Assembly (NCBI GenBank): GCA_963797555.1 | Contig: CAWCPV010000002.1 | Coordinates: 192,001 to 256,000 of the forward strand | Length of the DNA stretch: 64,000 nt | Direction: 5' to 3' | Source: an uncultured Gammaproteobacteria bacterium | GTDB lineage: Bacteria > Pseudomonadota > Gammaproteobacteria > CAWCPV01 | In this document: positions 31,096 to 55,336 of the stretch, one piece after another | Position numbering within the stretch: position 1 is the first letter of the stretch | Layout: the number at the start of each line of letters is the position of its first letter | Program-made: the position numbers and the translations under genes | Notes under the pieces: generated by a model | Databases searched by the model: none | What the model saw: only the letters and a program-made list of their open reading frames with translations | Told to the model about the DNA's origin: nothing

Positions 31096-31163
31096 AGATT
31101 CGCTTGTGCTTCCGGGGCGTGGTCCTATAGGTTCTCTTGAAGACAAAAGGCAGAGGCGGCGTG

Positions 31164-32222
31164 ATGACCGTGGACCTGGCTGTGGGGCAAGGGATCAAGG
31201 ATCGCCGGGACACCCCCGAGCGGGTGCTCCCCGAGCTTGGGGTCGGGCGGTATCGCCTGGCATTTCGAGCCGCCGAAGAGGTGATGCTGCCGGCCTATGC
31301 CGGCTCCGCCTGGCGCGGGGCCTTCGGGCACGCCCTGAAGCGCACAGTGTGTGTGACGCGCGAGCGGCGGTGCGAGGACTGCCTGCTCTACGGCTCCTGC
31401 ATTTACCCCTATGTGTTCGAGACCCCGCCTTCGCCGGGCGTCGCGAAGATGCGCCGATACACTGCGGCCCCTCATCCTTTTGTGCTGGCGCCCATGGATG
31501 GCGATGCGACGGGGCGGACCCTCGGTGTCGGCACTCCGCTCGCGCTCGGGCTCACCCTGTTCGGCCGGGCCAACGCCTACCTTCCGTACTTCGTGCACGC
31601 TTTACAGCGCGCGGGCGAAGAGGGGTTGGGCAAGGGGCGAGGCCGTCTCGCCCTGGCCGCGGTGGAGCAGGAGGCGGCGTGCGGCTCGGCAGACTGGCGC
31701 ACGGTCTATGAACCGGAGGAGCGCCTGCGGCCGTTCGGCGCACAGACACCCCCCGTCCCTCTGCCCCCTCGGGGCGTGTTGACCCTTACCTTCGCCACGC
31801 CTTTGCGCCTCAGGCGAGAGGGGCACAACGTCCCTTCCCAAGACTTGCGATTTTCTGACCTCTTCGGCAGCCTGCTGCGCCGCATCTCGATGCTGACCTA
31901 CTTTCACACCGATACACCGCTGGAGACGGACTTCGCGGGGTTGGTTCGGGAAGCGACGCGGGTGCCGCTGACGGAGGCCGATGTGCGGTGGCGCGAGTGG
32001 AGCCGCTACTCGTCTCGGCAGCAGACGAGGATACAGATGGGGGGCATCACCGGGACGGTCCAGGTAGACCTCACGGGCCACGACGACCTCTGGCCCTACC
32101 TGTGGCTCGGCCAATGGACCCACGTGGGCAAGGGCACCAGCATGGGTCTCGGGCGATACGCCATCGATATGCCCGCAAGCTTGCCGGCTCGGACGCCGGA
32201 GGCAGCGGCGTGCGAGACTTGA
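31164..32222 (+). CDS. cas6: Cas6 crRNA-processing endoribonuclease
   Basis: GSAWRGAFGHAL, CxxCxxxxxCxY, FATPLRL and G-rich loop HVGKGTSMGLG. Confidence 0.88.
   Translation: MTVDLAVGQGIKDRRDTPERVLPELGVGRYRLAFRAAEEVMLPAYAGSAWRGAFGHALKRTVCVTRERRCEDCLLYGSCIYPYVFETPPSPGVAKMRRYTAAPHPFVLAPMDGDATGRTLGVGTPLALGLTLFGRANAYLPYFVHALQRAGEEGLGKGRGRLALAAVEQEAACGSADWRTVYEPEERLRPFGAQTPPVPLPPRGVLTLTFATPLRLRREGHNVPSQDLRFSDLFGSLLRRISMLTYFHTDTPLETDFAGLVREATRVPLTEADVRWREWSRYSSRQQTRIQMGGITGTVQVDLTGHDDLWPYLWLGQWTHVGKGTSMGLGRYAIDMPASLPARTPEAAACET
32171..32187 (+). promoter_or_regulatory. GCCCGCAAGCTTGCCGG upstream of the CARF gene (candidate operator)
   Basis: The identical 17-mer occurs in reverse orientation at 45077-45093, upstream of minus-strand cas2. 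Confidence 0.55.
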
Positions 32223-32277
32223 CGCAAATGGAACCAAGCCAGCGCCGGCCCCCGGCCAAACGAGGCCGTCTCTGACC

Positions 32278-33495
32278 GTGAGCGGAGTGATGCAAAGCGG
32301 GCCGAGCCTCTTTCCCCGCCGCGTCCTGCTGGCCGTGACCGGGCTCACGCCCCAGGTGGTGACCGAGACCCTCTACGCGCTGGCCGTCCGGTCGGAACCG
32401 AAGTTCATACCGACCGAGGTCCACCTCGTCACCACGCTGGAAGGGGCAGAGCGCGCCCGCTTAGGGCTACTGCACGAGCGCACGGGGTGGTTCCACCGGC
32501 TGCGCGGGGATTACGGGCTGCCGGAGATCCGCTTCGACATGCAGACCATTCACGTGCTGAGCGATGCCGCCGGGACGCCGCTCGCCGACATCCGTGTGCC
32601 TGCGGACAACGAGCGTGCCGCGGACCTGATCACGGAGCTGGTCCGCCGGATCACCGACGACCCGGCGAGCGCCCTGCACGTCTCCATCGCGGGAGGCCGC
32701 AAGACGATGGGCTTCTACGCGGGCTATGCGCTTTCGCTGTTCGGGCGTCCGCAGGACCGGCTGTCCCATGTGCTGGTCAGCCCGCCGTACGAGTCACACC
32801 CGGCTTTCTTTTATCCCACCCCGGACAGCAACGTGATCCACACGTTTCCTCCGGACAGCCGCCCCTACGACACTCGCGATGCGACGGTGACCCTCGCCGA
32901 GATCCCCTTCGTGCGGCTGCGCCACGGCCTGGACGAGCGGCTGAAGAGCGGACAGGCCTCGTTCAGCGAGGTGGTGATGGCTGCCCAGCGGGCGCTGGGA
33001 ACGCCGGAGCTGGTGGTGGACCTCGGTGCCCGGAGATTGGTCTGCGGCGGGCAGGCCGTCGAGATGACACCCGTCAATCTCGCGCTGTATGCCGCGCTGG
33101 CGCGCCGGCGGCAGGCGGGCGAGGAACCGGTTCAGCGCAGCATCGCCGGGATCTCGGCGGAGCTCCTGGCGGCGCTCGCCGCGATCGTCCCGCCGATGTC
33201 CCTCGAGTACCAGCGCACGGAGGAGGCATTGCACGGGATCGCCCAGGCCGAGCGCACGGAACCCGCCCTCTGGAGCAGCATGGACCAGGGCGACTTCGAC
33301 CAGCGCAAGACGAGGGTGAACAAGGCACTGCGCCGCGCCTTGGGAGTGGGTGCGGAGCCCTATGTCATCAAGGCGATGGGCGGTCGTCCCCGCACCCAGT
33401 TTGGCCTGACGCTGCCCCCGGAGGCCATACGGCTGGTCGCCACTCCGCAGCGTGACGTTCGAGAGGCAGGGTCACGAGGGGAGATCCAAGGCTGA
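32278..33495 (+). CDS. NE0113-type CARF protein (Csm6/Csx14 ring-nuclease family) with a C-terminal winged-helix-like domain
   Basis: LAVTGLTPQVVTETL, HVSIAGGRKTMGFY and QDRLSHVLV. C-terminal LVVDLGARRLVCGGQAVEMTPVNLALYAAL resembles the start of an OmpR/PhoB wHTH. No HEPN RxxxxH seen. Confidence 0.85.
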   Translation: MSGVMQSGPSLFPRRVLLAVTGLTPQVVTETLYALAVRSEPKFIPTEVHLVTTLEGAERARLGLLHERTGWFHRLRGDYGLPEIRFDMQTIHVLSDAAGTPLADIRVPADNERAADLITELVRRITDDPASALHVSIAGGRKTMGFYAGYALSLFGRPQDRLSHVLVSPPYESHPAFFYPTPDSNVIHTFPPDSRPYDTRDATVTLAEIPFVRLRHGLDERLKSGQASFSEVVMAAQRALGTPELVVDLGARRLVCGGQAVEMTPVNLALYAALARRRQAGEEPVQRSIAGISAELLAALAAIVPPMSLEYQRTEEALHGIAQAERTEPALWSSMDQGDFDQRKTRVNKALRRALGVGAEPYVIKAMGGRPRTQFGLTLPPEAIRLVATPQRDVREAGSRGEIQG

Positions 33496-33573
33496 CGGAC
33501 TGCCCCATGACCATCGACCTCAGGGCTGCGCGTTTATATACGTGCCTCGGCAGGCCTGTCAGCCGACACGCAA

Positions 33574-33591
33574 GGCCGCAAGCTTGTGGCC
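33574..33591. promoter_or_regulatory. Near-perfect 18-bp palindrome GGCCGCAAGCTTGTGGCC upstream of cmr1
   Basis: About 55 bp before the cmr1 GTG; one mismatch from a perfect dyad. Confidence 0.55.
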
Positions 33592-33645
33592 CGAGCGTGG
33601 GATGGACTGTCGAGGCAACATAAGCCGGTACCAGGGAGAACGACT

Positions 33646-34825
33646 GTGAAGAAGCTGGAATACACCGTGGAGTTCACCACCCCCGCCTTCCTCGGCAACG
33701 CCGAGCAGGCGGGACAGTGGCGCACGCCGCCGTTCAAGGCGCTGTTGAGGCAGTGGTGGCGGGTGGCCTACGCCGCCGACCATGGCTTCCAGGTCGACGT
33801 GCCGAAGATGCGCCGGGAGGAGGGACTGCTGTTCGGCCATGCCTGGCTGGATGACGACCGCGACGAGCAAGGACGGCGGGTTGCCGCTCGCAAGAGCCTG
33901 GTGCGGATACGGTTGGACAAATGGGATGAAGGCAAGATGCACGGATGGCAACCCCTGGCGACGGTGTCCCATCCGGAAGTCAAGTCTCCCGACGTGTACA
34001 GCGATCTCTACCTTGGCTACGGCCCGGTCACACTTCCAAGAGGGGGTAAGCCCCCGCAACTCAAGGCCAACGCTGCTATCCGGGCAGACGAATCGGCCAC
34101 GTTGTCAACTGCTGTTCCAACCACGCATCAAGACGCAGAACTCGACCGGCTGCTCGAGGCCAATGTCCCTCGCATCGCGCAGGCGCTGTGGCTCATGGAC
34201 CGCTATGGCACTCTGGGCGGCAGAAGCCGCAATGGGTGGGGCTCCTTCTCGCTCACGCCCATGAACAGCACGCCGCCGCTGGCTGGCACGCCAGCGCTGC
34301 GGCCGTGGCGCGATGCGCTCGGTTTCGACTGGCCGCATGCCCTCGGTCAAGACGACGAAGGCGCCTTGATCTGGCAGACCCAGCCAGACGACTGGAAGTC
34401 GCTCATGCGCAAGCTGGCCATCGTAAAGATTGGGCTGAGGACACAATTCAAGTTTCCAAACGTATCGCTGCCCCACGCCCAGCCGCTGGATCGCCATTGG
34501 CTTTCATACCCCATCACAAGCCACAACCAAGGCATGGAAGGGGACATTCCGCCTGCCCAACAGCCTGCGCTTCAAGGTGCGCAAGCTCCCGGACGGTAAG
34601 TTGGTGGGCGTGATCTTTCACGTGCCCTGCCTGCCGCCACCGGAGTTCCATCCCCACCAAAACGCAAACGCCATTCGGGAGGTCTGGCAGCGCGTCCACG
34701 TCTTGCTGGATGAATGCAGGAAGCCATTGAATCAACGAGAGTACGCAAGCATCGCCGATACGGTCCGCCGCAGCCAACTCAAGCCGCAACTCGATCAGAT
34801 CACGCTGCATAGGATTCCGGAGTAA
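33646..34825 (+). CDS. cmr1: Type III-B RAMP Cmr1, with a frameshift near 34523
   Basis: EFTTPAFLG, FKALLRQWWR and GTLGGRSRNGWGS. The C-terminus continues in another frame as TKAWKGTFRLPNSLRFKVRK. Confidence 0.8.
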
Positions 34826-34828
34826 GTT

Positions 34829-37800
34829 ATGAACGACGATTTCACCTGGCAAACCAAGCTCGCCGCCCGCATCCACGACCCGGCGGAAAAGGCTTTGGTG
34901 CTGCTGCGCGACCCGGCGGGGCACGAGGGAGGCACCTCCCGCGCGTTGACCCGGCTGCTGGGCCTGTCGGATATCACTGGCGACGCCCTCGCCCCGGACA
35001 ATGCCGATGCGCTTTCCACTGTGGTCTTCAAGAGAGGCATCCCACTTGCGATGTACCGCCACGTCCAGCGCGCCGACTGGTGGGCGGCCGCCGCCGACCG
35101 GCCCCAATGGCCGATGGAGACCATCACCACGCCAGCCGGAAAGACCCTTAGTGTGGCCCCCTGGGCGCAAGTGCGATGGACGAGGTCGCCGGTGCTGATC
35201 CATCCCCTTACCGGTGACACCTTCGATCTGGCCAAGCACGGCGGGCTTTCCGATACCGATCTCGCCGACCTCAAGCAGCGCAGCTTTGGTCATTTCTCGC
35301 GACTACTCAGCGCGCTGCGCGACTCTGGCCCCGCCGAGGACCCGAGAAAGACCCTGCTCGCCTACTGGCGCTTCGGCCCGGAACTGGTCGAGGAAGAGGA
35401 CAATGGCAAGCTCGGGGCGCTATGGCGCTTGCTCCCCGCCGATACGCGCATCCCCGACCATTCCATCTGGGACCACCTGGATTTGACCTCCGCCTTCGCC
35501 GGGGCCTTCGCCGCCGACCCGGATGGCGAGGCCTCGCTGCTGGCGCTTGCTATCGGCCCGGTGCAAGGCTTCATCGCCGCCGCCCGCACCACCTCCGACC
35601 TTTGGGCGGGTTCCCACCTCCTCGCCCGTCTCGCCTGGGAGGCGATGAAGCCGGTATGCGAGGCCCTGGGGCCGGACGCTATTCTCTTCCCTCGCCTGCG
35701 CGGCATCCCCCAGGTAGACATCTGGCTGCGCGAAGAGATGAACCTGCCCGCCGAACTGTTCGGGGATTGCGACTGGATGCGGGGCGGCACGGATGCCAAC
35801 CCGCTGTTCTCCGCCGCACTGCCCAACCGCTTCGTGGCCATAGTGCCGGCGAGGCGGGCCAAGGAACTGGCCGAGGAGGTCACCCGCCGGGTGCGTGCCT
35901 GGTTGCAGGAGAAAGGCCAAACCGCCGTGGACCGCCTGCTTGACGTGACCGGGCTGAAGACCGAAGGCGAACAGCACTGCCACCGCCAAGTGCGGGAACA
36001 GTTGGAAGGCTTCCCGGAAGTCCACTGGTCGGCGGTGCCGTTCTCGCTGATTCGCCCGCGCAACGCGGCTAAACAGACCGATCTGGATGTCGCGGCCTTG
36101 TCCGACGCAATGGCGCCGTTCTTCGGCGTGGGGGCGGGCCAGGATTGCGGTTTTCTGCACACGCCTGCCTGGCAGGCTCTGCAACAAGAGGCCACGTTGC
36201 GCGATGACGAAGGTAAGGAATCGGTGTTCTTCGCGCCCAATCCCGGCGTTCTCTACCCGGCGGTGTATGACCTGGCCGAGCGGGTGCTGGCGGCGGCCAA
36301 GTCCGTGCGCGCCTTCGAACAGACCGAGCAACGGGGCTGGCGCTGTTCGCTCACCGGAGAGACCGAGTGGCTGACGGACAACTCCGATCACCTAGCCGTA
36401 CCCGCGGGCAAGCGCAAGAGCCGCAAGGATGAAAGGTTCCGTGAAGCCGAGCACGTGGAAACCCTGTGGACCCGCGTGGCCGACAAAAACCCCGCCTGGG
36501 CGAAAAAGGGCGAGCACCTGGGTGCGCTGCCCGCCCTCAAGCGGTTGTGGCCCACCCTGTTCGCCGAGGAGGTCGGCAGGGCCTTGGGCGGCAAGGACAT
36601 TGGCCGCTTCGTGGTGTCCACCCATACCATGGCGCTCGCCCACCAGCTCGACCAATGGCTGGAACGCGGCGGCTTGACTGCGGAAGGGCTCGCCATCGCT
36701 CTCAAGAAATACCGCAGTGAGTCGGCGGCGCTGCCCCGCCGATTGATGCGCAAACATGCCGCCAACAGGAAGGGGATTGACGATGCGAAGCTCATTCCCG
36801 GCCTGCTCGACGTGGCGAGCGAGGAGGAGATCAGTGACAGTGAGAGCGCCGAGATCAGAAGGCTAGTGTCCCAGACGCTGGCAACTGGCCGGGACAAGAA
36901 GGAGAAGGTCCGTCTTGAAACCTACTACGCGTTATTGATGATGGACGGCGACCACATGGGTCGCATTCTGTCCGGCGACGAGAAAACCGCCATCCCCTAC
37001 CGCGGGAGCTTTCATCCCCATGTGAGGAATGGCTTTGAAGAATGTGCCGCCCGGCAGGAGATCATCCGCCGTTACGGCGAACAGAGACGCCCGATTTCTC
37101 CCAACCGTCACCTGGCGATCTCCGGAGCGCTGAACGATTTTTCGCAGACCGTGGTGCGCCATGTGGTGGAAGAGGAGCACCTGGGCCGGGTGATCTATGC
37201 CGGTGGGGACGACGTGCTGGCCATGCTGCCGGTGGTCGACCTGCTCCCGGCCATGCAGCGGCTGCGCCTTGCGTGGTCCGGCCATGACCCGGCGCACGAG
37301 GGCGGCACGCATGCCGGGCTCACTTTGCAGGGCGGCTTCGCCGCTTTGAAGACCCGGCGAGACGGCAAGGAATGCTTGCAGCTCATGCGCATGATGGGCG
37401 GCAATGCCTCGGCGTCCTGCGGTGCGGTCATTGCCCACCATCAGGCCCCCTTGGGCGGCGTTCTGCGCGAGCTGCGGGCGGCGGAACAGCGGGCCAAGCA
37501 GGAAGGCGGACGCGATGCCTTCTCCCTCACCGTCATCAAGCGCTCGGGCGGTGCGCTGCGCCTCACGGCGCAATGGGGCGAGCCGGTGGACGTGCTCGCC
37601 GATCTCAGGGTCTACCTCGCTGATGAAGGGGTCTCGCGCCGGGCGGTGTACCACAGCCTGGAGTGGCTCGCCGATCTGCCCGAGCCCGAAGGGGACGGCG
37701 CGATGATCGAGGCGTTGCTGACCTATCAGCTCGAGCGGCAGGCGGAGAAGACGGCCCGCGACCGCCACGATATACCGGGGCTGGCGAAGCGCCTGACCGT

Positions 37801-37903
37801 GCTCGCCCTGGCCCAGGCAGGAGACCGGCTCGCGTGGCTCGGCAATTTCCTGACCGTGGCCGAATTCCTCGCCCGCGAGACCCGCGCCGGAGAACCCGCA
37901 TGA
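34829..37903 (+). CDS. cas10: Cas10/Cmr2 with HD motifs and an intact Palm cyclase motif
   Basis: IHDP and PADTRIPDHSIWDH, IGPVQGFIAAARTTSDLWAGS, MDGDHMG and YAGGDD. Confidence 0.95.
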   Translation: MNDDFTWQTKLAARIHDPAEKALVLLRDPAGHEGGTSRALTRLLGLSDITGDALAPDNADALSTVVFKRGIPLAMYRHVQRADWWAAAADRPQWPMETITTPAGKTLSVAPWAQVRWTRSPVLIHPLTGDTFDLAKHGGLSDTDLADLKQRSFGHFSRLLSALRDSGPAEDPRKTLLAYWRFGPELVEEEDNGKLGALWRLLPADTRIPDHSIWDHLDLTSAFAGAFAADPDGEASLLALAIGPVQGFIAAARTTSDLWAGSHLLARLAWEAMKPVCEALGPDAILFPRLRGIPQVDIWLREEMNLPAELFGDCDWMRGGTDANPLFSAALPNRFVAIVPARRAKELAEEVTRRVRAWLQEKGQTAVDRLLDVTGLKTEGEQHCHRQVREQLEGFPEVHWSAVPFSLIRPRNAAKQTDLDVAALSDAMAPFFGVGAGQDCGFLHTPAWQALQQEATLRDDEGKESVFFAPNPGVLYPAVYDLAERVLAAAKSVRAFEQTEQRGWRCSLTGETEWLTDNSDHLAVPAGKRKSRKDERFREAEHVETLWTRVADKNPAWAKKGEHLGALPALKRLWPTLFAEEVGRALGGKDIGRFVVSTHTMALAHQLDQWLERGGLTAEGLAIALKKYRSESAALPRRLMRKHAANRKGIDDAKLIPGLLDVASEEEISDSESAEIRRLVSQTLATGRDKKEKVRLETYYALLMMDGDHMGRILSGDEKTAIPYRGSFHPHVRNGFEECAARQEIIRRYGEQRRPISPNRHLAISGALNDFSQTVVRHVVEEEHLGRVIYAGGDDVLAMLPVVDLLPAMQRLRLAWSGHDPAHEGGTHAGLTLQGGFAALKTRRDGKECLQLMRMMGGNASASCGAVIAHHQAPLGGVLRELRAAEQRAKQEGGRDAFSLTVIKRSGGALRLTAQWGEPVDVLADLRVYLADEGVSRRAVYHSLEWLADLPEPEGDGAMIEALLTYQLERQAEKTARDRHDIPGLAKRLTVLALAQAGDRLAWLGNFLTVAEFLARETRAGEPA

Positions 37904-39093
37904 GCGCCGTCGAGTTCCGATTCCTGGAACCCCTGGACGTGCTGTTTCTGCGCGGCAACAAGCTGTTCGGCGACCCCGGCAGCTTCGGCGAATCGCTGGT
38001 GCCGCCGTGGCCCTCGGTGGCGGCGGGGGCGCTGCGCTCCCGGATGCTCGCCGACCAAGGCGTGGACCTCGCCGCCTTCGCGGCTGGCGAGGTGGAGCAC
38101 GAGACCCTTGGCACGCCCGACAAGCCCGGTTCCTTCGCCATCACCGGCTTCACGCTTGCGCGCCGACTCCCGGACCGCACGGTCGAGCCGCTCATCGCGC
38201 CGCCTGCCGACCTGGTCGTAGTACGGAAGGATACCTGCGAACCCGAAGCCCGCTCCCTCACCCCAACCCCTTTCCCGGGGAGCGAGGGACTGCCGGGGCG
38301 AGCCGTTATCCGGTCTTCCGCGCCCCTGCCATTGCTGCCTGTGCTCGCCGAAACCGAGCGCAGTAAGCCCGCCTCCGGTTACTGGCTCACCGGCGCCGGC
38401 TGGCGCAAGTACCTGGCGGGCGAAACCCTGGAACCCGGTGACCTCATTCACACCAACAAGCTCTGGGCGATCGACCCCCGTGTGGGCGTGGGCCTGGACG
38501 CCGCGACCCGCCGCGCCGCCGACGGCCGCTTGTTCTCGGTGCAGGCGGTTGCGATGAAGAAACGCGAGCACGATCCCAAGGCCGGTTTTGATGTCGGCTT
38601 TCTGGTCGGCGTCAGCGGGGCCGTGCCACCGGCCGGCGGCACAGTGCGGCTGGGAGGTGACGGCCGGGCCGCCGCCGTGCATGCGGTGGTTCCGGATCTG
38701 CCGCAACCGAGCTACGAGACTATCGCCGGCGCCCGAGGCTGCCGGCTGGTCCTGACCACCCCGGGACTCTTCCGCGATGGCTGGCTGCCCACCGGCTGCG
38801 CCCGGTCGTCCGACGGCACGGTGCGTTTCGATCTGCACGGGGTGCGCGGGCGGCTCGTGTGCGCTGCCGTGCCGCGCCCCGAGGTGGTCTCGGGCTGGGA
38901 CCTCGCCCGCTGGCTGCCCAAGCCCGCCCGGCGCGCCGCGACCACCGGCAGCGTCTATTGGCTGGACGAGATCGATGCGACCCCGGAGGCGCTGCGCAAG
39001 CTTGCCGACACAGGACTATGGGACGAAGCGTGGCACGATCCGCAGCGCAGGGCCGAAGGCTTCAACCGGACCGCAGTGGCGAGCTGGTCATGA
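37900..39093 (+). CDS. cmr3: Type III-B Cmr3
   Basis: EPLDVLFLRG, PWPSVAAGALR, RLGGDGR, VSGWDLA..PKP and GSVYW; ATGA overlap with cas10. Confidence 0.9.
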   Translation: MSAVEFRFLEPLDVLFLRGNKLFGDPGSFGESLVPPWPSVAAGALRSRMLADQGVDLAAFAAGEVEHETLGTPDKPGSFAITGFTLARRLPDRTVEPLIAPPADLVVVRKDTCEPEARSLTPTPFPGSEGLPGRAVIRSSAPLPLLPVLAETERSKPASGYWLTGAGWRKYLAGETLEPGDLIHTNKLWAIDPRVGVGLDAATRRAADGRLFSVQAVAMKKREHDPKAGFDVGFLVGVSGAVPPAGGTVRLGGDGRAAAVHAVVPDLPQPSYETIAGARGCRLVLTTPGLFRDGWLPTGCARSSDGTVRFDLHGVRGRLVCAAVPRPEVVSGWDLARWLPKPARRAATTGSVYWLDEIDATPEALRKLADTGLWDEAWHDPQRRAEGFNRTAVASWS

Positions 39094-39101
39094 AGGCAGC
39101 G

Positions 39102-40941
<1,840 letters not shown>

Positions 40942-41197
40942 CGCGCCAACGCCACGGACGTCCCTTCTTCGCCGCGTGATACGGCGCGGGGTGCGAGCCG
41001 CGCGAGGGGGGAGCAAGGGAGCTGCGATCGGGTAAGGCGCGGGTATCTTTTCCTCACCGACGATGCGCTGGAGATCCCCAAGCGGGATCCGCTAGCTCGC
41101 GGATGCGGTGGGCTGATCACCGGGGATCGCCAGTGACGCGCCACCACAAGGTCTTGGACGGCATCCTGCGTAGCTTGCGCCCTGCCGCCACTGCCTT

Positions 41198-42571
41198 ACT
41201 GTAATCCCTTCTTCATCAGGTCTCCGTTCGAACGATGTGTTCACGCACGATGGGCGGGCGGTATCGTCTTAATCCCTTCTTCATCAGGTCTCCGTTCGAA
41301 CCCGGTTTTGTCATGGCAAGTCGATGCGGCCAACGTGTCTTAATCCCTTCTTCATCAGGTCTCCGTTCGAACCAGTGAAGGCGAAGGGTGCACAGAGTGT
41401 GCACCTGTCTTAATCCCTTCTTCATCAGGTCTCCGTTCGAACACGAAGGTAGCGATCCGACGTTGGAGCAATATGCGTCTTAATCCCTTCTTCATCAGGT
41501 CTCCGTTCGAACGGGTTTATCCCCGGCTCGCTGTTGACCGGCCCACGCGTCTTAATCCCTTCTTCATCAGGTCTCCGTTCGAACAGCGAGTCTGGCATCG
41601 GCATCCACCGATTGTACTCGTCTTAATCCCTTCTTCATCAGGTCTCCGTTCGAACACAGAACTGAGTGGAGATGAAGCGCATCCTGCCGTCTTAATCCCT
41701 TCTTCATCAGGTCTCCGTTCGAACAATCGACGATGCACGACGTACAGATCTGGTAGCGTGTGTCTTAATCCCTTCTTCATCAGGTCTCCGTTCGAACTTC
41801 AACGATCAGCGTCCGATCTGTGATACACGTCTGCTGTCTTAATCCCTTCTTCATCAGGTCTCCGTTCGAACCTACTGCATGAGCGGTACGTCAGGTGGCG
41901 TGGCAGTGTCTTAATCCCTTCTTCATCAGGTCTCCGTTCGAACTTGCACAGCGCTAACGGCGAGTCACGACTCTACATGAGGTCTTAATCCCTTCTTCAT
42001 CAGGTCTCCGTTCGAACCTGTAATCCGCGTGGGATTGACCATCAGTCTCGTCTTAATCCCTTCTTCATCAGGTCTCCGTTCGAACGCTCATGACGCTGCG
42101 GCATGAGACTGCACGCCTATGTCTTAATCCCTTCTTCATCAGGTCTCCGTTCGAACGTAATTGTCAATTGCAACGGAGGATAACCGAAGGTCTTAATCCC
42201 TTCTTCATCAGGTCTCCGTTCGAACTCCTATGGCGTGCGGCACAGAGGCAAATGGCCGAGTCTTAATCCCTTCTTCATCAGGTCTCCGTTCGAACAAATA
42301 CATGGAATGGGTCAATGACGAAGTACTGGTCTTAATCCCTTCTTCATCAGGTCTCCGTTCGAACTACAATAGGCGACATTGCAAGGAAGGTAAGGGTCTT
42401 AATCCCTTCTTCATCAGGTCTCCGTTCGAACATAGCGTATGTGGTACAATCCTGTCCGCATCCTAGTCTTAATCCCTTCTTCATCAGGTCTCCGTTCGAA
42501 CCGCGTTCTGCGAGTGTCTATACGATACCGTTCCAGTCTTAATCCCTTCTTCATCAGGTCTCCGTTCGAAC
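41198..42571 (-). CRISPR. CRISPR array: 20 repeats of 36 bp and 19 spacers of 31-38 bp
   Basis: Plus-strand repeat GTCTTAATCCCTTCTTCATCAGGTCTCCGTTCGAAC; its reverse complement ends ATTAAGAC. The degenerate repeat is at the left end (41198), so the leader is on the right, next to cas2. Confidence 0.98.
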
Positions 42572-42644
42572 TGCTCGGCCCAAAAACGCCCGCTGGAGCG
42601 AGGGCTTATCAGCACCCTTGACACAAAACCGCCGACTCGCAAAG
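42572..42644 (-). promoter_or_regulatory. CRISPR leader (short; may extend into the cas2 3' tail)
   Basis: Lies between the first perfect repeat and the cas2 stop, and contains A/T runs. Confidence 0.6.
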
Positions 42645-43001
42645 TCAACCTCGTCCATCGGGCTTCGCCTCCTTCCGCTCGACAACCTTAACCCTCTCAC
42701 CCGCCCGGATCAAGGCGTCGCGAGAGGGTCCGCCCAGCAGGTAAACGTCCTCGGGCAGGGTGGCCTCGCCGAGCTGCGTCCATTCCGGGTCTTCGGGCAA
42801 GGGGTAGATGCGGACATCGTCCTCCCGTTGGTCGATCAGGTCTCGCAGGTCGTCCACCAGGCGCTCGACGCCGGCGCGCGTCAGATGGGCCACGAATACC
42901 GAGTACTGAACGTGCACGGCGCGCCGCCTGAGGTGGGCATGCACCCAGCGCAAGCGCCGGTCGTCCCGGATGTCGTAAGCGACGATGTAGGCGCGCCTCA
43001 A
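42645..43001 (-). CDS. cas2: Cas2 (array-proximal copy)
   Basis: YIVAYDIRDDRRL..VQYSVF..DDVRIYPL; the TTG start overlaps the upstream stop. Confidence 0.9.
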   Translation of the reverse strand: MRRAYIVAYDIRDDRRLRWVHAHLRRRAVHVQYSVFVAHLTRAGVERLVDDLRDLIDQREDDVRIYPLPEDPEWTQLGEATLPEDVYLLGGPSRDALIRAGERVKVVERKEAKPDGRG

Positions 43002-43753
43002 GGGTCGAGCCTCCAGAGCCCCTGCAGCAGGCGGCGCAGGGTACGGTCCAGAGGCTCCTCCAGCCTGCGCTGGTAGTGGCCCGCCAGGGACTCCAGGTCA
43101 TCGCCGCCCGGAGGGGAACGCAGCACGCGGCCGCGGAGCGGCCACGACATCAGCCGAGTCAGCTCGCGGGCAAGGTTGATCCCGTTGCGCTGACCGAGCG
43201 CAAGCTGCGGTACGATACCGGCGCGCTCCAGCACCTCCAGGATCTGGGCGGCAAGCAGTGAGCGCAAACGCCCCAGGCATTTCCGGCTGGCCTCGCGCCC
43301 CACCCGGATGGCGACCGCGCGGTCGAGCCGGGGACCGACTTCCCCCGGCCTGAGGTCGCTCAAGGGCCAGCGCAGCGCCAGGTGGAGGTTCAGGATCATC
43401 CGCCGTTCCTGGGCGCGGAACCAGTCGTTCCAGCGCTCGCGCCAGTTCGGGCCGGACAGGAAGGCGTCGAGGTGCGCCTGAAGCCCGGCCACGTCGTCCG
43501 CCCGGCCGACGCACACCCCGCAGACGGCCCCTTCGGGGTCCAGGAAGATCACCGGGACTCGGGCGTCCAGGCAGGCGAGCAGGGCGTCGCCGTCCCAGGA
43601 CACCGAGCGCCGGCTGATGATCCGGGCGAGCCATCCCAGCGGATACCAGCGGGCGGCCCGCTCCGGCCGGGCGACTCGGAGCGCCGGTCCGTCCCGCGAC
43701 ACCCTCAGCTCGCCATCGGGATCAAGATAGAGGACTTTCCGAATCGGAGTCAT
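42998..43753 (-). CDS. Short Cas1-like protein (251 aa) lacking catalytic motifs
   Basis: The N-terminus parallels the Cas1 beta domain (VLYL..LRV..YPL..LARI..ALLACLDARVPVIFLD..G). C-terminal AGIVPQLALGQRNGINLARELTRLM aligns by eye to AGMDPYIGFFH..SMASDLLEPL without the catalytic His and acidic pattern. Confidence 0.7.
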   Translation of the reverse strand: MTPIRKVLYLDPDGELRVSRDGPALRVARPERAARWYPLGWLARIISRRSVSWDGDALLACLDARVPVIFLDPEGAVCGVCVGRADDVAGLQAHLDAFLSGPNWRERWNDWFRAQERRMILNLHLALRWPLSDLRPGEVGPRLDRAVAIRVGREASRKCLGRLRSLLAAQILEVLERAGIVPQLALGQRNGINLARELTRLMSWPLRGRVLRSPPGGDDLESLAGHYQRRLEEPLDRTLRRLLQGLWRLDP

Positions 43754-44704
43754 CCAGCACCTCCACTGGAGCGGCGGCCCGCAGCGCCTTGGCGAGCCGC
43801 AGCGACGCGCGGCGCAACGCCCGCCGCCAGGGCCCGGAGAACCGCTCGTAGGCGGGGTAGAAGCGTCCGCGCCCCTCCTTGTTCAACAGGCACGCGCCCT
43901 TGTCGTCGACGAAGTGGTGCTCGCGCAGTGCCCGGTCGCGAAACAGCGTCCACACCCAGCGATCGGCGTGCGGGCGCAGAGGTTCGAGCAAGTCGGAGGC
44001 CATCGACTCGCGCCCGAAGGCCGGGCGGTGGAAAAAGCCGATGTACGGGTCCATGCCGGCCCCATAGGCCGCCCTACCGCCTCGAAGTGCAGCAGCGTGT
44101 AGGTGAGGGACAGGCACGCGTTGACCGGATCGCGGGGCGGACGGCGGTTGCGCCCCCTGAACGCGAGGCTGGGTGGAAACACCGACGCCAAGGCCTCGAA
44201 GTAGGCAGCGGCCCCAGCCCCTTCCAGGCCGCGCAAGGTGTCCGGGTCGCGTGTCTCCCGCACCGCTTGCCCCAGGCGCTCCAGCCGCTCGGCGCCGTTC
44301 AGCAGCGCGCGCCGCTGGTCGGGTCGGCGCTCCAGCGCGGCGAGCAGCACCCGGCGCTGGCCGCCCAGCTTGTGCGCAACCAGACGAGCGCTCCAGGCCC
44401 CGCACCAGTCCCGGTCGGTGACCCGCTGGAACTGCGCCAGGCGAACCCGCAGATCGTTGTGGGGCCGGCCCAGCACGATCGCCACGCGCCGGCCTTGGCG
44501 CGGACTGAGGACGAGCACGGCGGTGCCGTTCTCGGCGAGCGCCCCCAGCACGCCCGTGTCCAGGGTCGTCCGGGCATGGATGACGACGCGATCGAGCAGG
44601 GCGAGGGGCACGTCCCGCACCGCGACGCCGTCGAGCCTGAGGCGCAGGCGCCCACCCGCCAGCCCCAGGGTCAGGTCCTTGCGGTCGATGTAGAGCGTGC
44701 TCAC
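43722..44704 (-). CDS. cas1: Cas1 integrase, with a one-base frameshift near 44073
   Basis: LRGLEGAGAAAYF, RNRRPPRDPVNACLSLTY, then DPYIGFFH and ASDLLEPLR in the second frame. Confidence 0.9.
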
Positions 44705-44715
44705 GAGAGCGTCCC

Positions 44716-45000
44716 TCAGCCCTCGTAGAAGAACGGCGGATCGACGGGCGCGACCGCTACTCCCAGCGTACGGACCGGCATCCTGGGATCGAGGCGCACC
44801 ACGAAGAAGCGGTCCACGCGCTCGTCCATGATCTGAGCCACGCAGACGAGCAGCTCGGCGCGTTCCGCCGGGGTCAGAAAGCACTCGTACACCGACTTCT
44901 GTCCGCCCGCGGCGTGGGCGCGCACCACCTCCATCACCGCCGTCAGGCGTTGCGGCGAGCGGATGTCGTAGGCAGCCAGATACAGATTGCGCTCGGTCAC
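44716..45000 (-). CDS. cas2: Cas2 (first copy)
   Basis: AGGA then GTG; YLAAYDIRSPQRL..GQKSVYEC. Confidence 0.88.
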   Translation of the reverse strand: MTERNLYLAAYDIRSPQRLTAVMEVVRAHAAGGQKSVYECFLTPAERAELLVCVAQIMDERVDRFFVVRLDPRMPVRTLGVAVAPVDPPFFYEG

Positions 45001-45017
45001 TCCTGGTCTCCGTGCAT

Positions 45018-45541
45018 TGGCGGATCGGTTCAGTGCCACGGAAGAAATGTAGCCGCAGGGTCGCGAGAACGTGCGTCCGGCAAGCTTGCGGGCAGACCGA
45101 CGGCCAGACGAATGGGCCAAGCGCCGCGCTGAAGCGCGCGGCTAGCGAGCATCGGGCCTGGCGGCGACCCAAGCCTGCAACCGCATGCGCAGCCGAGTCA
45201 GCTCGTCGCCCGACACCAGCCGGATATCGGAGAGCGCCGCCCGCTCGCAGTGCCGCGGGCCCGCCGTAAACCAGCTCACCAGCATGGGTCGCGCAACCAG
45301 GCCGCCGACCTTGCGGATGCTGTCCAGCTTGTAGAGCATTTGGGTCAGCTCGTCGGCATCCTCTTCGTCCCCGCGCGGGCGAGCGGTCTTGCACTCGACG
45401 ATGCACAGGTGGTTGCGCGCCAGGAACGCGACATCCAGCTCATTCTGTACGGGCGGAGATCCCGAGTCCGCGCGCACCTGGAGGTTCGCTGCCACTTCGT
45501 CGATACCCCACGCCGCTGCGTTCAGGGAGAGGGTGGCGGCC
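45018..45541. repeat. Copy A of a ~524 bp direct repeat (3' end of the Card1/Can2-like gene plus downstream intergenic DNA)
   Basis: Near-identical to 51966-52488, about 15 differences by eye. Contains the gene fragment 45142-45541 and the palindrome at 45080. Confidence 0.95.
45077..45093 (-). promoter_or_regulatory. GCCCGCAAGCTTGCCGG upstream of cas2-cas1 (candidate operator)
   Basis: About 77 bp before the cas2 start, in the same relative orientation as the copy at 32171. Confidence 0.55.
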
Positions 45542-45634
45542 TGGATGGATGAGGCGCGAAAAACATCCGCGTCAGCGGAGCCCGCAACGTCGAGACGCTT
45601 TCAAGCCCGGAACGGGGTGATTGGCCATCGGAGT

Positions 45635-47596
45635 TCACGAAACGCCCGGGTACGCGTTTCGCAGATCAAAGGCTTTTCTCCAATAAGCCCGCTCTCGGGC
45701 CTCGTAATACTCCGGGCCGCGTTTGCGTATTACCCGCTCAGGCAATCTTTCGGCAATAGCAAGGCGCTTGCTCGTATCCGACGCCGTGTCAGAATGCGTC
45801 AGATCACCGAGCGCCTCCGCTTCTTCCATGGTGGGATTGTTGACCAGCCTAAAAAACGGGTCAGCCCATCGCTGCGAAACGAATGGATCAATACCGTATT
45901 CGAGGATGAGGGGCAGAACCGTATCGATGAACTGAAACGCTCCTTTCTGCACCCGTTGTGCAAGCTCCCGGACTTTCTCGTCGTCTTTGTTGTCTTCGAG
46001 GATCGGCGCCACGTTACCGTCCTTCTCCTCGTATCCGAGCGTCGTTCCGTGGGGTGCCATGAGCGCAAATTCGAGCAACTCCACGCCTCCGTTGATAAGA
46101 CTTTCCGTGAGCGACCATGGATCGTTTTCATTGACAAGATAACCCCAAAACACATTGCGCGGAAGATAGTTCTGCGGAAGCATGCCGAAGGTTCCGAGGT
46201 AGTAGCCGTGCACGTGAAAATCCGTCCGCACGAGCTGCAGGAGCCGCGAAAACCCCCCCTGCATGTTTCCGGTCCAGCCGATGTCCACGATCCCGACCCG
46301 TCGGACTCCTTGTGCAAGATCGGCGACGTAACGGGTCGGGAGGGGGCGCTTTCTCTTTGCCTCGAGCAGAATGTTGCTCCAGAGCGAATTAAGGAGACGA
46401 AACATTCGTATGTCGCTGTTCGGAACGATTTCGTCGACGAAGGCATATCCTGCCCGCTTGATCTCCTGAAGATAATGGTGGGGATTCATGCCCAGTTTCC
46501 GCAAATGAAACCCGACGGTTCGCGTGGCCCGCCCGCTGAAAAGGTGCCAGACCCGGTCGATGGGAAAATCGACGAAGCTCGGGAGAAGAATCGCTGCCCG
46601 CGAGAAATATGCGTATTTGAGCTCCACGTCCGCACCGAGCAGATCGCCGTACCCTTGGAAGACCTGGTACGGAAGGTAGGCATCCCGCGCAAAAAAAAGC
46701 ATGCGTTCAACCCTGTGCTGTCTTGCAAGCCGCGTTGTCCAGAGAATATTCCCGAGAAAAAGCGGTCCGAAAACCTGCAGGCCAATATCTTCCCAGAATT
46801 CAGGTTCCTCCTCCATAATCCGCTTCCGTATCGAACCCATCATCAGCGACCAGATGTGATTGTCCGCACCCGGTTTTTCCTGCGGCATACGGAGCTGCGG
46901 TTCGGCGTTATGCTTAAGGTAATTGAAGAATTCGGCGTGCAAGCCGGCGGCACGGGGAACAATCACATCTGCATGTTCATTGTCGCCAAAGTGCACAACA
47001 TCGCCCGGTGTCGCCGAAAACCTCCGCAAAACTTCTTCATACATCGAGCCTTGGTGTTTGCTCTTCCGCAGTTCCCATGACACCAGGAGGGTATGCGGTC
47101 CCGCATAGCCGCACACGGATAGAAGCTTTGCGATGAAACGGGAGGGAAGATACATGTCCGAACACAAGACGACCTCGCAGGCGCCCTGTGCCGCAACCCG
47201 ATAGACCTCCAGCATGAGCGGGTTCGGATGGCAAAGCCGCTCTTCAAGCTCGAGTTCCAGGTTCTTCAGGTAACCGCGTTGCTCCTCCGTCAAATGGAGG
47301 ATGTCGGCCAATACTTCATAGATGTCGTCGATTCCCACTTCCGGCGTGCCGGCCGACGCCATCAACCGCACGCGCGCCTCTGCTTCCGCTTCACTCCTCT
47401 TTTGTGCGAAATTGCACGCTATTCCAGGGTTGTAAAGGCCGAATTCCCGGTGCTTCAGCAGCGCCCCGGCCACGTCGAACACATCCGTCGGCCGGTGCAC
47501 GGTACGATGGATAAGTGTATCGAACACGTCGAAGGAGACGACCTTCGCCGCGATTATTCGCGTTGTGTAGTCCTCAAGCAGTTGTTCGCTGTTCAT
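45635..47596 (-). CDS. HAD-superfamily hydrolase-like protein of polysaccharide loci
   Basis: VVSFDVFDTLIHR, SDMYL, HFGDN..AD, FFARDA and VDIGWTGNMQ. Confidence 0.85.
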   Translation of the reverse strand: MNSEQLLEDYTTRIIAAKVVSFDVFDTLIHRTVHRPTDVFDVAGALLKHREFGLYNPGIACNFAQKRSEAEAEARVRLMASAGTPEVGIDDIYEVLADILHLTEEQRGYLKNLELELEERLCHPNPLMLEVYRVAAQGACEVVLCSDMYLPSRFIAKLLSVCGYAGPHTLLVSWELRKSKHQGSMYEEVLRRFSATPGDVVHFGDNEHADVIVPRAAGLHAEFFNYLKHNAEPQLRMPQEKPGADNHIWSLMMGSIRKRIMEEEPEFWEDIGLQVFGPLFLGNILWTTRLARQHRVERMLFFARDAYLPYQVFQGYGDLLGADVELKYAYFSRAAILLPSFVDFPIDRVWHLFSGRATRTVGFHLRKLGMNPHHYLQEIKRAGYAFVDEIVPNSDIRMFRLLNSLWSNILLEAKRKRPLPTRYVADLAQGVRRVGIVDIGWTGNMQGGFSRLLQLVRTDFHVHGYYLGTFGMLPQNYLPRNVFWGYLVNENDPWSLTESLINGGVELLEFALMAPHGTTLGYEEKDGNVAPILEDNKDDEKVRELAQRVQKGAFQFIDTVLPLILEYGIDPFVSQRWADPFFRLVNNPTMEEAEALGDLTHSDTASDTSKRLAIAERLPERVIRKRGPEYYEARERAYWRKAFDLRNAYPGVS

Positions 47597-48692: not shown

Positions 48693-48971
48693 TTCAGATG
48701 AATTGGTCTCCGTGGTTTCGATATACTGTGACCCCGAGAAGCCTGCCTGAAATCCGCAACGACGGTTCCGGGATAGTGCCCCCATCGCGGCGCGAGGCAG
48801 GCTGCTCTTGGGACCGGAAAAGTCTCACGGCGTCGCCGAAGAAACCGCCCACATGGTCAAGGTGCGGGCTGACCGACATGGGCAGGCCCTTCCGCCCCGC
48901 TGCGGGCGAAAAATTGCCACGCGCGAAATATCGTGTCGAGGGAGCGAGAAATCCTTGTTCTCACGCGGGTG

Positions 48972-50184
48972 TCAGGGTATGCGTAAGAGTTTCCTGAGCC
49001 TGCGGAACGGCTGGAGAATGCCGTAGCCCAGTCGATAACTCGACGTTCTGGAATGCTTGGATGAGTTCGGCATCCTTTGCCATGAGGGCTTGTTGAAGTG
49101 CCATGAGGGCTTCTTGAAGCCGTGCCAGAGCGGCGTCCTTTTCCACGTTAAAGCCATGAAGTTGTCGAATCGAATCTTCCCGCTGCCACAGCATGTCGCG
49201 AAAGACGTTTCTTTCCGCGTCCCGTTCGTCGCGCATGCAAGCGATGCGTTCGTCTTTCACGGTGAGCTGGCCGAGGAGTTTCTCGATGGCCATATCCTTT
49301 TCCCACAAAATATCCCGCACGCGGCGGAGTTCTTCCGCCTCTTTCCGGCCAAGGCGCGCGCTCTCTTCAGCCGTGTGCGCTTCCACTTTGCGAAGCTGAC
49401 GCTCCAGAGCCTTGTACCGGGGAAGGTCGGAGGACGCCATAAAGCTGGGATACCACGCCAGAAGCACATCGAACGTTTCCCGGTTCGGTGCCACGCGGTC
49501 TTCACGGATCGTATTGCCACCGTGGAGTCGGTAGCGCAGGAGCCGTTGCTCCCGAAGGAACAGAAGTCCGTGAGGCTGGTCGGCGAGAAACCGAAAAATG
49601 AACTCGTAGTCGAGGACATAGCGGTAGTCGTTGAAGCGTCCGATGCTGTCAAAGACATCCCGCCGCACGAGAAAGTTGGAGGTTGTCAGGAGGATGTTTC
49701 CCGCAAGAAGAGCCTGGACGATATCGCCGGTCTCGACGTAAATCCGCTTCAGATCGTCATACCAGGAAAGCCACCAGTGAGCTTTGTCGCGAATGATGGT
49801 TCCGTCGGCGTCGACGAGTTCCACATCGGAGGCGACGAACGTCGCACCCGTTTCATTGGCCGCATGCATCAGGCGTTCGAGGCGGTTCGGTGCAAAGACA
49901 TCGTCGGAGTTGAGGATCGCTATGAAGGCCCCGCGGCTTTGTCCGATGCCTTCATTCAGTGTTGCGGCTGCGCCCCGGTTCTGTTCGTGATGCATACGCC
50001 GCACCCGACGGTCGTCAAACCCGTCCACGATCTCGCGGGTGGCGTCCGTGGACGCGTCATCGATCACGATGAGCTCAAGGTCCTCGACGGTCTGGGAAAG
50101 CGCGCTCCGGATCGCCGTTTCCACGTACCTTTCGTGGTTATATGCAGGGATAACGATGCTGACGGCCGGGTTGTTCGTCATCAC
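48972..50184 (-). CDS. Family 2 glycosyltransferase with a coiled-coil tail (probable frameshift near 49040)
   Basis: VSIVIPAYNHE, DDASTD and LNSDD; an alternate frame supplies the typical SSYRLG...PFRRL end. Confidence 0.85.
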
Positions 50185-50349
50185 ATGTGGTCACGCATTG
50201 TTTGCGGCATCTCTCACCGCCCGTCAGCGCTTTATACCTGCGCGGGGTACACACAGAGCGTTAGTACTGTCTCGAACTTACCTACACGTTTGGCCAACGC
50301 CGCGATCAATAGGGTTCGATGCACAATCAATGCATTGCGAGCTCGATTA

Positions 50350-50640
50350 AGCGTAAAGCGATTTCTGAGACACTACACTAGCACGGAGACCATTCTGAAC
50401 GATAGGCGGCAGCGGCCCAAAGGGAATATAAGTTCTGCATGAGAAGAATCTGGCGCGAAAACGGCTTTCCGAATCGCTCGCCGGGTATGGCCGGGTCCGG
50501 CTGCCCGTCGGCAGAAAAGAACGGTGTTCCCCGGCCCCGTAGACGACATCGGTGGGGGGTCGCAAGCTTCTTCGATCGAGGGTGTGAGGGCCTTCTTGTG
50601 TATAGACATCGTCGTCGTGGAGGAAGGTGATCCATTCAAA
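50350..50640 (-). pseudogene. 5'-truncated GT2 fragment abutting oriIS
   Basis: EWITFLHDDDVY..DVVYG begins immediately after the oriIS-like sequence. Confidence 0.55.
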
Positions 50641-51965: not shown

Positions 51966-52488
51966 TGGCGGATCGGTTCAGTGCGCGGAAGAAATGTAGC
52001 CGCAGGGTCTCGAGAACGTGCGTCCGGCAAGCTTGCGGGCAGACCGACGGCCAGAGGAATGGGCCAAGCGCCGCGCTGAAGCGTGCGGCTAGCGAGCATC
52101 GGGCCTGGCGGCGACCCAAGCCTGCAAACGCATGCGCAGCCGAGTCAGCTCCTCGCCCGACACCAGCCGGATATCGGAGAGCGCCGCGCGCTCGCGGTGC
52201 CGTGGACCGGCCGTAAACCAGCTCACCAGCATGGGTCGCGCAACCAGGCCCCCGACCTTGCGGATGCTGTCCAGCTTGTAGAGCATTTGGGTCAGCTCGT
52301 CGGCATCGTCGTCGTCCCCGCGCGGGCGGGCGGTCTTGCACTCGACGATGCACAGGTGGTTGCGCGCCAGGAACGCGACGTCCAGCTCATTCTGTACGGG
52401 CGGAGATCCCGAGTCCGCGCGCACCTGGAGGTTCGCTGCCACTTCGTCGATACCCCACGCCGCTGCGTTCAGGGAGAGGGTGGCGGCC
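51966..52488. repeat. Copy B of the ~524 bp direct repeat
   Basis: Matches 45018-45541 and includes the palindrome at 52027. Confidence 0.95.
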
Positions 52489-54525: not shown

Positions 54526-55136
54526 GGTCGAGACAGCGGGACCCAGCCGAGGGAGCCGAGGTCCACGGCGACCTCCGGGAATGCCTTCGGGCGTGCGGCG
54601 CCTGCGCGGTAGTAATCCACGTGCCGGTACTCGCCGGCCTCGGGGCCGTGGTAGACATCGAGCCGCTTCTCCGGCAGGTCGAACAGCCAGACCTCGGGGA
54701 TACCGCGGCGGGCGTAGAGCGGAACTTTCACCTCGCGGTCGTACCGCCCAGTGGTGTCGGCCACTTCGACGAGCAGCAGGACATCTTCGGGGCCGGGATG
54801 GGCGGAGCGGTAAAAATCGTCCCTGAACTTGAGCACGGCGAGGTCGGGCTGGGGCTCGGAGTGATCGTCGAGCCGAACCGGGTCCTGGACACTCACCACG
54901 GCCCGGTCGCGCACCCCGACCGCGAGCAGGTGGTTCAGCAGCTTGACGATGCCCGTATGCTCGCTGCCTAGCGGCGCCATGTCGACCAGCGCCCCCTCGA
55001 TCAGCTCGACGCGCTCGCCCGGCTTGAAGATACCGGCCTCGCCCATGCGCTGATACACCTCCACCGTAATCATGCGCCGGGCTGGCAACAGCGCCTCCTC
55101 GACCCGGTGCTCGTCAGCCGCAACGCTCATGACCAT
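54522..55136 (-). CDS. Uma2/DUF820 family endonuclease
   Basis: RVELIEG, SEPQPDL, LLVEVADT and YARRGIPEVWL; overlaps the CARF gene start. Confidence 0.9.
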   Translation of the reverse strand: MVMSVAADEHRVEEALLPARRMITVEVYQRMGEAGIFKPGERVELIEGALVDMAPLGSEHTGIVKLLNHLLAVGVRDRAVVSVQDPVRLDDHSEPQPDLAVLKFRDDFYRSAHPGPEDVLLLVEVADTTGRYDREVKVPLYARRGIPEVWLFDLPEKRLDVYHGPEAGEYRHVDYYRAGAARPKAFPEVAVDLGSLGWVPLSRP

Positions 55137-55336
55137 ACCTCACGCCTCATCCCGGCAGCAGAATCCTATCCGAGCCCCCGATCCTTGCCCGGAATCGGCG
55201 CCGAGCGATTGAAACACCCTCAGGGAGCGCTCGTGGCCCTCGTCCTCCGCAGAGCTCCTGGCGGCGCTCTCCTGCCAGACGTTAGCACGCTTCATCGTTC
55301 TGTGCACCGAAGGCCCCCAAGGAACGCCGTCGACAA

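Follow-up and report, generated by a model that had tools for sequence, protein, structure and literature searches.

What might a CRISPR locus do with two Cas1 paralogues, one of which has lost its active site, and with two Cas2 paralogues beside them? The question is raised by a 64,000-nucleotide (nt) stretch of DNA from an uncultured Gammaproteobacteria bacterium (assembly GCA_963797555.1, contig CAWCPV010000002.1, positions 192,001 to 256,000 of the forward strand), the whole of which is referred to here as the window, where four genes named cas2b, cas1, cas1s and cas2a lead into the leader of a CRISPR array. A sequence-only reading had placed these genes side by side next to the leader, and their coordinates and layout hold, all four lying on the minus strand (Table 1). 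The module is a Cas1-Cas2 set in which both subunits have been duplicated and one Cas1 copy, the short protein Cas1s, has been inactivated. The answer proposed here, from alignments and structural models, is that Cas1s may take part, as a subunit without catalytic activity, in a heteromeric Cas1-Cas2 integrase serving a type III-B system, a proposal whose chances of being right appear evenly balanced.

The short Cas1-like protein and its family

Against the Pfam Cas1 family, Cas1s scores 17.6 bits, below the cut-off of 22.3, and the match covers residues 17-84 only; the TIGR00287 model gives no match, and the Cas4g/Cas1g model alone is hit, at 12.1 bits. An AlphaFold2 model of Cas1s, built on 98 relatives, has a mean predicted local distance difference test score of 92. 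When this model was searched with Foldseek, the matches listed were Cas1 or casposase chains, aligned over about 275 columns, and with VIA-align 50 of the 50 matches listed were again Cas1 or casposase, with the Cas1 of Thermotoga maritima (4xtk_B) superposed over 243 of the 251 residues at a Z score of 19.9 and a root-mean-square deviation of 3.0 Å. The predicted structure is a complete two-domain Cas1 fold, made up of an N-terminal beta-sandwich and a C-terminal helical domain, and the likeness to Cas1 that had first been noticed in the N-terminal domain extends in the model to the whole protein.

When the Cas1s family is aligned with the family of the neighbouring Cas1 by hhalign (probability 98.6, E 1.3e-15, full length), the catalytic Glu of the LEG motif falls in a segment that is deleted from Cas1s, the His of GFFH corresponds to Gln, and the Glu of DLLEP, which is the second acidic residue, corresponds to Arg, an acidic residue being kept only at the Asp position. 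In the neighbouring Cas1 family, all 22 of 22 sequences have E161, H226 and D238, and E241 is conserved to at least 90%. The 98-sequence alignment of the Cas1s family shows neither an acidic residue nor a His that is invariant or conserved to at least 90%, and the positions that are conserved are mostly hydrophobic or structural ones in the N-terminal domain, together with two tryptophans. The sequence-only reading had described the short protein as lacking the LEG, GFxH and DLxE motifs of its neighbour; direct reading of the sequence and the hhalign alignment agree with this in finding no counterparts of them in cas1s. Judged by these alignments, Cas1s is a Cas1 without the Glu-His-Asp/Glu metal-binding active site.

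Proteins of this kind form a large family. A word-index search returned 14 homologues of 251-277 amino acids (aa), three of which (at 86%, 81% and 66% identity) are each exactly 251 aa long, and when 1.84 billion cluster representatives were searched with a profile, 938 matched at E<=1e-3 and 293 at E<=1e-30. Length lies between 245 and 285 aa in nearly all of the 150 matches listed, the names given to members by their sources are 'CRISPR-associated endonuclease Cas1' or 'hypothetical protein', and in the ESM Atlas Cas1s has clusters of equal size as its neighbours, found most often in Pseudomonadota. The absence of a Cas1 fold, or a lack of conservation, had been named beforehand as findings that would speak against a specialised Cas1s; what was found instead is the fold, at the Z score given above, and conservation across the 293 clusters.

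Scans of metagenome contigs with the Cas1s of the window and with its 81% relative found no locus, and the ratio of nonsynonymous to synonymous substitution rates (dN/dS) was therefore drawn from two more distant within-genus pairs of loci, L030/L033 and L016/L017. For these two pairs, respectively, dN/dS is 0.16 and 0.40 for cas1s, 0.07 and 0.14 for cas1, 0.01 and 0.18 for cas2a, and 0.09 and 0.18 for cas2b. The cas1s gene is under purifying selection.

A fixed order of four genes and what may explain it

In a sample of 400 genomes of the window's class (one further genome was not scored), the Cas1s profile was matched in 28 genomes at E<=1e-5, with 25 strong matches and 24 genera represented, and four of the strongly matching genomes are assembled in one or two contigs. 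A sample of 401 genomes of the phylum gave 13 at E<=1e-15, 12 of them from other classes. The loci examined number 35 (24 from the class set and 11 from the phylum set), all picked by their Cas1s match, and the order cas2b-cas1-cas1s-cas2a on a single strand was found in 35 of 35, in several classes, a contig end having removed one end gene in each of two cases (L026 begins inside cas1 and L055 ends inside cas1s). Across these loci Cas2b has 93-97 aa, Cas1 310-329, Cas1s 243-274 and Cas2a 90-151. Stops and starts usually overlap in the related loci, and a 4-nt overlap between the cas1 stop and the cas1s start is present in 9 of 21 loci (those of L011-L034 in which cas1s was placed). In the window, the stop of cas2b is followed after 11 nt by the start of cas1, cas1s starts 32 nt inside the end of cas1, and the TTG start of cas2a overlaps the stop of cas1s (TTGA). 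Conservation of the gene order and dN/dS had been suggested as checks on this module, and both bear it out.

The second Cas2 goes with the short Cas1. A full-length match to the Cas2b profile at E<=1e-30 was found in 26 of the 400 genomes, generic Cas2 reaching about 1e-13, and a strong Cas2b-family match is present in 25 of the 25 genomes with a strong Cas1s match. Nothing stated here depends on genome G039, which is flagged as unpublished. In genome G268 (contig C3, 532840-533909), a Cas2b-family gene (E 1.2e-27) is followed about 530 nt downstream by a further Cas2, and a strong Cas1s match is absent from this genome, which may carry another variant of the module. Both small proteins of the window score above the Pfam Cas2 (PF09827) cut-off, and against TIGR01573 (cut-off 24.5) cas2a lies above it with 35.7 bits and cas2b below it with 21.1. 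They are 35% identical over 86 residues, and their families are homologous by hhalign (probability 99.2), with mean identities of 39% within Cas2a, 51% within Cas2b and 27% between the two. Each family has motifs of its own, which read QYSVF...DDVRIYPLP in the window's cas2a and GGQKSV.EC.L...DRF...FY.G in its cas2b; both keep the Asp of the N-terminal YDI motif, as D13 in Cas2a and D12 in Cas2b, invariant in 25 and 24 sequences, respectively.

An array follows cas2a directly in 11 distinct loci of relatives, and the arrays beside the module have 36-37-nt repeats, all ending in GGGATTAAGAC, and hold 249 spacers with a mean length of 33.5 nt (standard deviation 1.4), so that the module is linked to one repeat family. 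The repeat of the window, on the minus (transcribed) strand, is GTTCGAAC...GGGATTAAGAC; as it ends in ...GGGATTAAGAC on this strand, the array is read in the direction of the four genes, with the leader abutting cas2a. In the ten loci with larger surroundings, Cmr, Card1 and NE0113 genes lie nearby, and a full card1 is often found directly upstream of cas2b in relatives. The leaders of the window and of L016, L022, L030, L031, L033, L034, L036, L038, L039, L040 and L042 are short, at about 70-110 nt, and, aligned by eye, share a CAA-(G/C run)-...-AA motif some 40-60 nt ahead of the first repeat, which in the window takes the form CAA(G/C)4-5...AA. A scan of positions 42400-45700 for sigma-70-like promoters gave 0 sites.

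It is proposed that the four genes make up one adaptation (spacer-integration) operon of a type III-B CRISPR-Cas lineage, in which duplication would have split roles within one adaptation machine. Cas1 would retain catalysis as the integrase, and Cas1s would retain the fold, above all its N-terminal beta-sandwich domain, minus the active site, most likely replacing the non-catalytic protomer of each Cas1 dimer. The paralogues Cas2a and Cas2b would not be redundant: both would be needed, and they would connect the Cas1 dimers, possibly paired in a heterodimer. In the Cas1-Cas2 complex of Escherichia coli, one protomer per Cas1 dimer is catalytic (two of four), so that the other place could be taken by an inactive paralogue without any loss of catalysis, and in solved complexes it is the N-terminal Cas1 domain that makes the dimer contacts and the contacts with Cas2. 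Over the 24 class loci, the mean identity of Cas1s is 31% in the N-terminal domain versus 19% in the remainder, a pattern which is reversed in Cas1 (39% versus 49%).

Several points weigh against this proposal. Cas1s is the fastest-evolving of the four proteins, with a mean pairwise identity of 23% over the 24 loci versus 46%, 39% and 50% for the others, and more constraint might be expected of an obligate core subunit than it displays. Distance correlations among the four proteins, of which the highest in an exploratory comparison are those of Cas1s with Cas1 and of Cas1 with Cas2b (0.72 each), are expected of linked genes and prove nothing. Mutual binding, assembly, stoichiometry and any effect on the choice of spacers are inferred, and so are the control of spacer orientation or length and the regulation of acquisition that the sequence-only reading had suggested. 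The cas1 of the window is out of frame as well and its effector genes are damaged, and a working copy is not to be assumed there. The rate at which Cas1s evolves, 2-3 times that of its neighbours and as often seen in regulators and arms-race factors, would also suit a different arrangement, in which Cas1s would pair with Cas2a, outside the integrase core, in an accessory or regulatory complex of their own, where they could act as a prespacer-capture or hand-off factor, as a leader-binding factor, or as a brake that titrates Cas1, Cas2b or DNA ends against self-acquisition. The loss of the catalytic residues fits such a complex, as does the grouping of the genes into two adjacent pairs, cas2b-cas1 and cas1s-cas2a. 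However, strict co-occurrence, the fixed order and the start/stop overlaps suit a single complex at least as well, and the best-conserved part of Cas1s is the very domain that makes the dimer and Cas2 contacts; a separate complex is considered rather unlikely, while far from negligible.

The same loss of catalytic residues, a Pfam score under the family cut-off and the several lesions in the window's locus could also be taken to mean that the extra genes are a decaying cas1-cas2 duplicate without a function of its own. This is hard to reconcile with a family of 293 strongly matching clusters, nearly all of one length among the matches listed, with dN/dS values well below 1, with the confident full fold predicted for Cas1s, with the identical order in all 35 loci and several classes, or with a cas1s of 251 unbroken codons whose three homologues noted above have the same length. 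Given the Cas1 fold, the conservation of the family, purifying selection and the fixed order, simple decay of cas1s is very unlikely, to the point of being barely credible.

The heteromeric integrase can be put in a stronger form, as an obligate and intrinsically asymmetric enzyme in which two Cas1:Cas1s heterodimers are bridged by one Cas2a:Cas2b heterodimer and the two ends are non-equivalent, and in this form it is thought improbable. Prediction of a complex from the Cas1, Cas1s, Cas2a and Cas2b of locus L024 gave scores of 0.16 and 0.18 (mark 0.32), for a set of four chains which is unlike those of the tool's calibration and was run without controls, and these scores speak neither for nor against binding. 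If such an enzyme did exist, the choice of the prespacer end to be joined on the leader side would be built into the complex itself, and this would provide control of orientation or strand for a type III system that targets RNA, uses no protospacer-adjacent motif (PAM) and has neither a reverse transcriptase nor Cas4.

The copy in the window and its surroundings

Table 1. Features of the window discussed in the text; positions count from the first letter of the window.
Feature	Position	Strand	Details
Type III-B gene set	31137..40941	plus	cas6, NE0113-family gene, cmr1, cas10/cmr2, cmr3, cmr4, cmr5; converging on the array
PIN-domain (VapC-like) and Phd/YefM antitoxin genes	39102-39730	minus	between cmr3 and cmr4
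Truncated cmr5 and unrelated sequence behind it	40720-41198		up to the degenerate last repeat of the array
CRISPR array	41198..42571	minus	20 repeats of 36 nt each, with spacers of 31-38 nt
Leader	42572..42644	minus	73 nt, from the cas2a stop to the first repeat
cas2a	43001..42645	minus	118 aa, TTG start; Pfam Cas2 65.7 bits (cut-off 23.8)
cas1s	43753..42998	minus	251 aa, uninterrupted frame; start overlapping the end of cas1
cas1	GTG 44704, stop 43724..43722	minus	in two frames; LEG, GFFH and DLLEP present
cas1, N-terminal part (frame A)	44704..44075	minus	210 codons, of which 209 before the break (44078..44704); GTG start, LEG, ends '...LLHFEAV'
cas1, C-terminal part (frame B)	44075..43722	minus	117 codons, begins 'RAAYGAGMDPYIGFFH...'; GFFH and DLLEP
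cas2b	45000..44716	minus	94 aa, GTG start, open frame extending back to TTG 45120; Pfam Cas2 35.3 bits (cut-off 23.8)
card1-type nuclease fragment	45142..45495	minus	profile positions 32-135 of 136; no CARF domain
card1, full length	52089-53258		
csm6	53251-54525		
Uma2-family endonuclease, HepT-like RNase, ADP-ribosylglycohydrolase and DUF2130 genes	54522-58739	minus	typical of defence islands

The sequence-only reading had missed that the cas1 next to cas1s is not intact as assembled: the gene changes frame at 44075/44076, where it lacks one base, in the stretch that separates LEG from GFFH. Its N-terminal and C-terminal parts score 106.5 and 61.9 bits against TIGR00287 and cover positions 1-202 and 205-282 of PF01867, which are the two halves of the Cas1 model, and the best scores of this Cas1 are those against the I-G and I-C Cas1 models. 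For comparison, Logan contigs from four marsh-metagenome runs were used, which hold related, not identical, sequence. In three of the three contigs that cross 44075/44076, one base is added at this site, which on the plus strand is T, C or G and on the coding strand gives GTA, GTG or GTC, all of them Val, and in each case restores the frame, so that the cas1 of close relatives is intact. Synonymous variation at this position is what would be expected of a working gene. The frame is likewise intact in 22 of the 24 class loci (L026 ends at a contig edge and L028 is similarly split) and in 11 of the 11 loci from other classes. In the intergenic sequence upstream of cas2b, at 45036, the window has one base more than four of the four metagenome runs. 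The argument against decay that had been built on an intact frame and on translational coupling is upheld for the cas1s family, by its conservation, selection and gene order, but the coupling part of it fails for this copy as assembled, because its cas1 is frameshifted. The copy of the module in the window may be inactive.

The type III-B locus of the window is not whole either, a complete Cmr set not having been found in it. Of its proteins, Cas10 and Cmr3 are complete; in cmr1 the frame shifts near 34523, next to four consecutive G, and cmr4 lies in two frames, matching the RAMP profile at positions 2-102 and 104-188, with the break at a run of six G (40354-40359). The cmr5 gene matches its profile only at positions 1-53 of 119 and is cut after about 60 residues, where unrelated sequence begins that runs to the last repeat of the array; through a deletion or rearrangement, the effector operon seems to have been brought up against the array's far end. 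The window yielded no cmr6, and the presumed cmr6 open reading frame of a relative, so assigned solely because it follows cmr5, has its only match on contig C20 of the genome. Part of this damage may be assembly error, though base-calling errors cannot account for the truncation of cmr5, the lack of cmr6 or the fragmentary card1.

It is conceivable that the module of the window and its type III-B partner are being lost and that the frame breaks are real mutations. In keeping with this, cas1, cmr1 and cmr4 are all broken, cmr5 runs into unrelated sequence, cmr6 is missing from the window, card1 is reduced to its nuclease domain beside a block of lower GC content with glycosyltransferase genes, and a second cas1 of the same genome (contig C4, 237760-238474, plus strand) is split over three frames, while dnaE and uvrA each give a full profile match in one open frame. 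Yet the G runs at or beside the breaks in cmr4 and cmr1 are typical places for assembly indels, dnaE2 is split as well, the extra base at 45036 sets the window apart from all four runs, and the repeats of the array are identical to one another save for the leader-distal copy (41198), which is degenerate at its end. The genome, moreover, is 84.6% complete in 20 contigs, and the contigs used for comparison stem from relatives and not from this strain, and so cannot decide. Ongoing loss of the locus is regarded as a tentative reading, somewhat short of an even chance. The matches in the genome that resemble aminoacyl-tRNA synthetases are each in one open frame, and rpoB and rpoC, sought there as further controls of intactness, were not found. 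A genome-wide count of frameshifts from the periodicity of GC content at third codon positions called 297 sites and flagged 0 of the known breaks in the window; it was regarded as unreliable and was left unused.

Other features lie around the module. The full-length card1 and csm6 are separated from the card1 fragment by the lower-GC block (0.57-0.58), which holds a HAD-like hydrolase gene and the glycosyltransferase genes and looks like an insertion into the accessory-gene region. The PIN-domain and antitoxin genes between cmr3 and cmr4 have homologous toxin-antitoxin pairs at the same place in L044 (1356-2062) and L036 (about 16886-17191), so that this Cmr operon seems to carry the pair as a conserved insertion. 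Another adaptation set is carried by the same genome on contig C20 (G000; 48741-50466, plus strand), in which a Cas2b-like gene is followed by a 468-codon frame whose residues 6-75 form a Cas2a-like domain and whose residues 129-415 make up a full Cas1. Here again there are two Cas2 paralogues, perhaps with a Cas2-Cas1 fusion, and no Cas1s.

Relation to catalogued and known adaptation systems

A gene of the Cas1s type has already been noticed and catalogued in PADLOC-DB, as 'Cas1, diverged variant, second in the loci' (PDLC01185), and each of the 98 members of the Cas1s alignment has this profile as its best PADLOC match. The description fits the place of cas1s behind a regular cas1, and the profile length of 246 fits the family; it differs from the present account in that the profile gives no function and makes no mention of a second Cas2. 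The Cas1s of the window matches it with E 1.5e-16 over profile positions 8-110 of 246, and the best member with E 2.5e-27, and the partial coverage and this best value make it probable that a related subset went into building the profile. Its wording was presumably taken over from the profiles used in CRISPR-Cas classification. In the literature searched, outside which most subscription journals and the supplements of classification papers lie, the accessible text describes no cas2-cas1-cas1-cas2 module, second Cas2 or inactive second Cas1, and no function for them; matches there for 'inactivated Cas1' proved on reading to be 'inactivated Cas10'.

If the heteromeric integrase is right, a widespread module divides the catalytic and structural roles of Cas1 between two genes and adds two Cas2 paralogues. 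Such a module would offer a ready-made system for the role of the non-catalytic Cas1 protomer, and a handle on how PAM-less type III systems choose and orient their spacers. With 25 strong matches in 400 genomes, four of them in assemblies of one or two contigs, the idea, which is plausible, is directly testable, and the module is frequent enough for intact, culturable sources to be found.

The canonical Cas1-Cas2 complex, for example that of the E. coli type I-E system (4P6I, 5DS4 and 5VVJ among the fold matches), shares with the module the two-domain Cas1 fold, which is common to the window's Cas1 and to Cas1s, and the small proteins of the window both belong to the Cas2 family, in an operon that adjoins the leader end of the array. 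It differs in that here there are two Cas1 paralogues, one of them without the active site, and two Cas2 paralogues with a mean identity of 27% between their families, in the gene order 2-1-1-2. The Cas1-Cas2 integrases among the solved structures matched here are all homomeric in Cas1 and in Cas2.

Two further kinds of adaptation complex bear comparison. In the Cas4-Cas1-Cas2 complexes of types I-C and I-G (7MI4, 7MI5 and 8D3L), the entry titles describe an adaptation complex that is made asymmetric by an added subunit, as is envisaged for Cas1s. The added subunit in those complexes is the Cas4 nuclease, which reads the PAM. In the present module it would be a Cas1 paralogue, and no cas4 was seen in the loci. 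The RT-Cas1 and Cas6-RT-Cas1-Cas2 systems of type III (7KFT and 7KFU) are similar, as far as entry titles and abstracts tell, in that a special adaptation module is attached to type III effectors; the module described here differs from them in having no reverse transcriptase domain, both of its subunits, Cas1 and Cas2, being duplicated instead.

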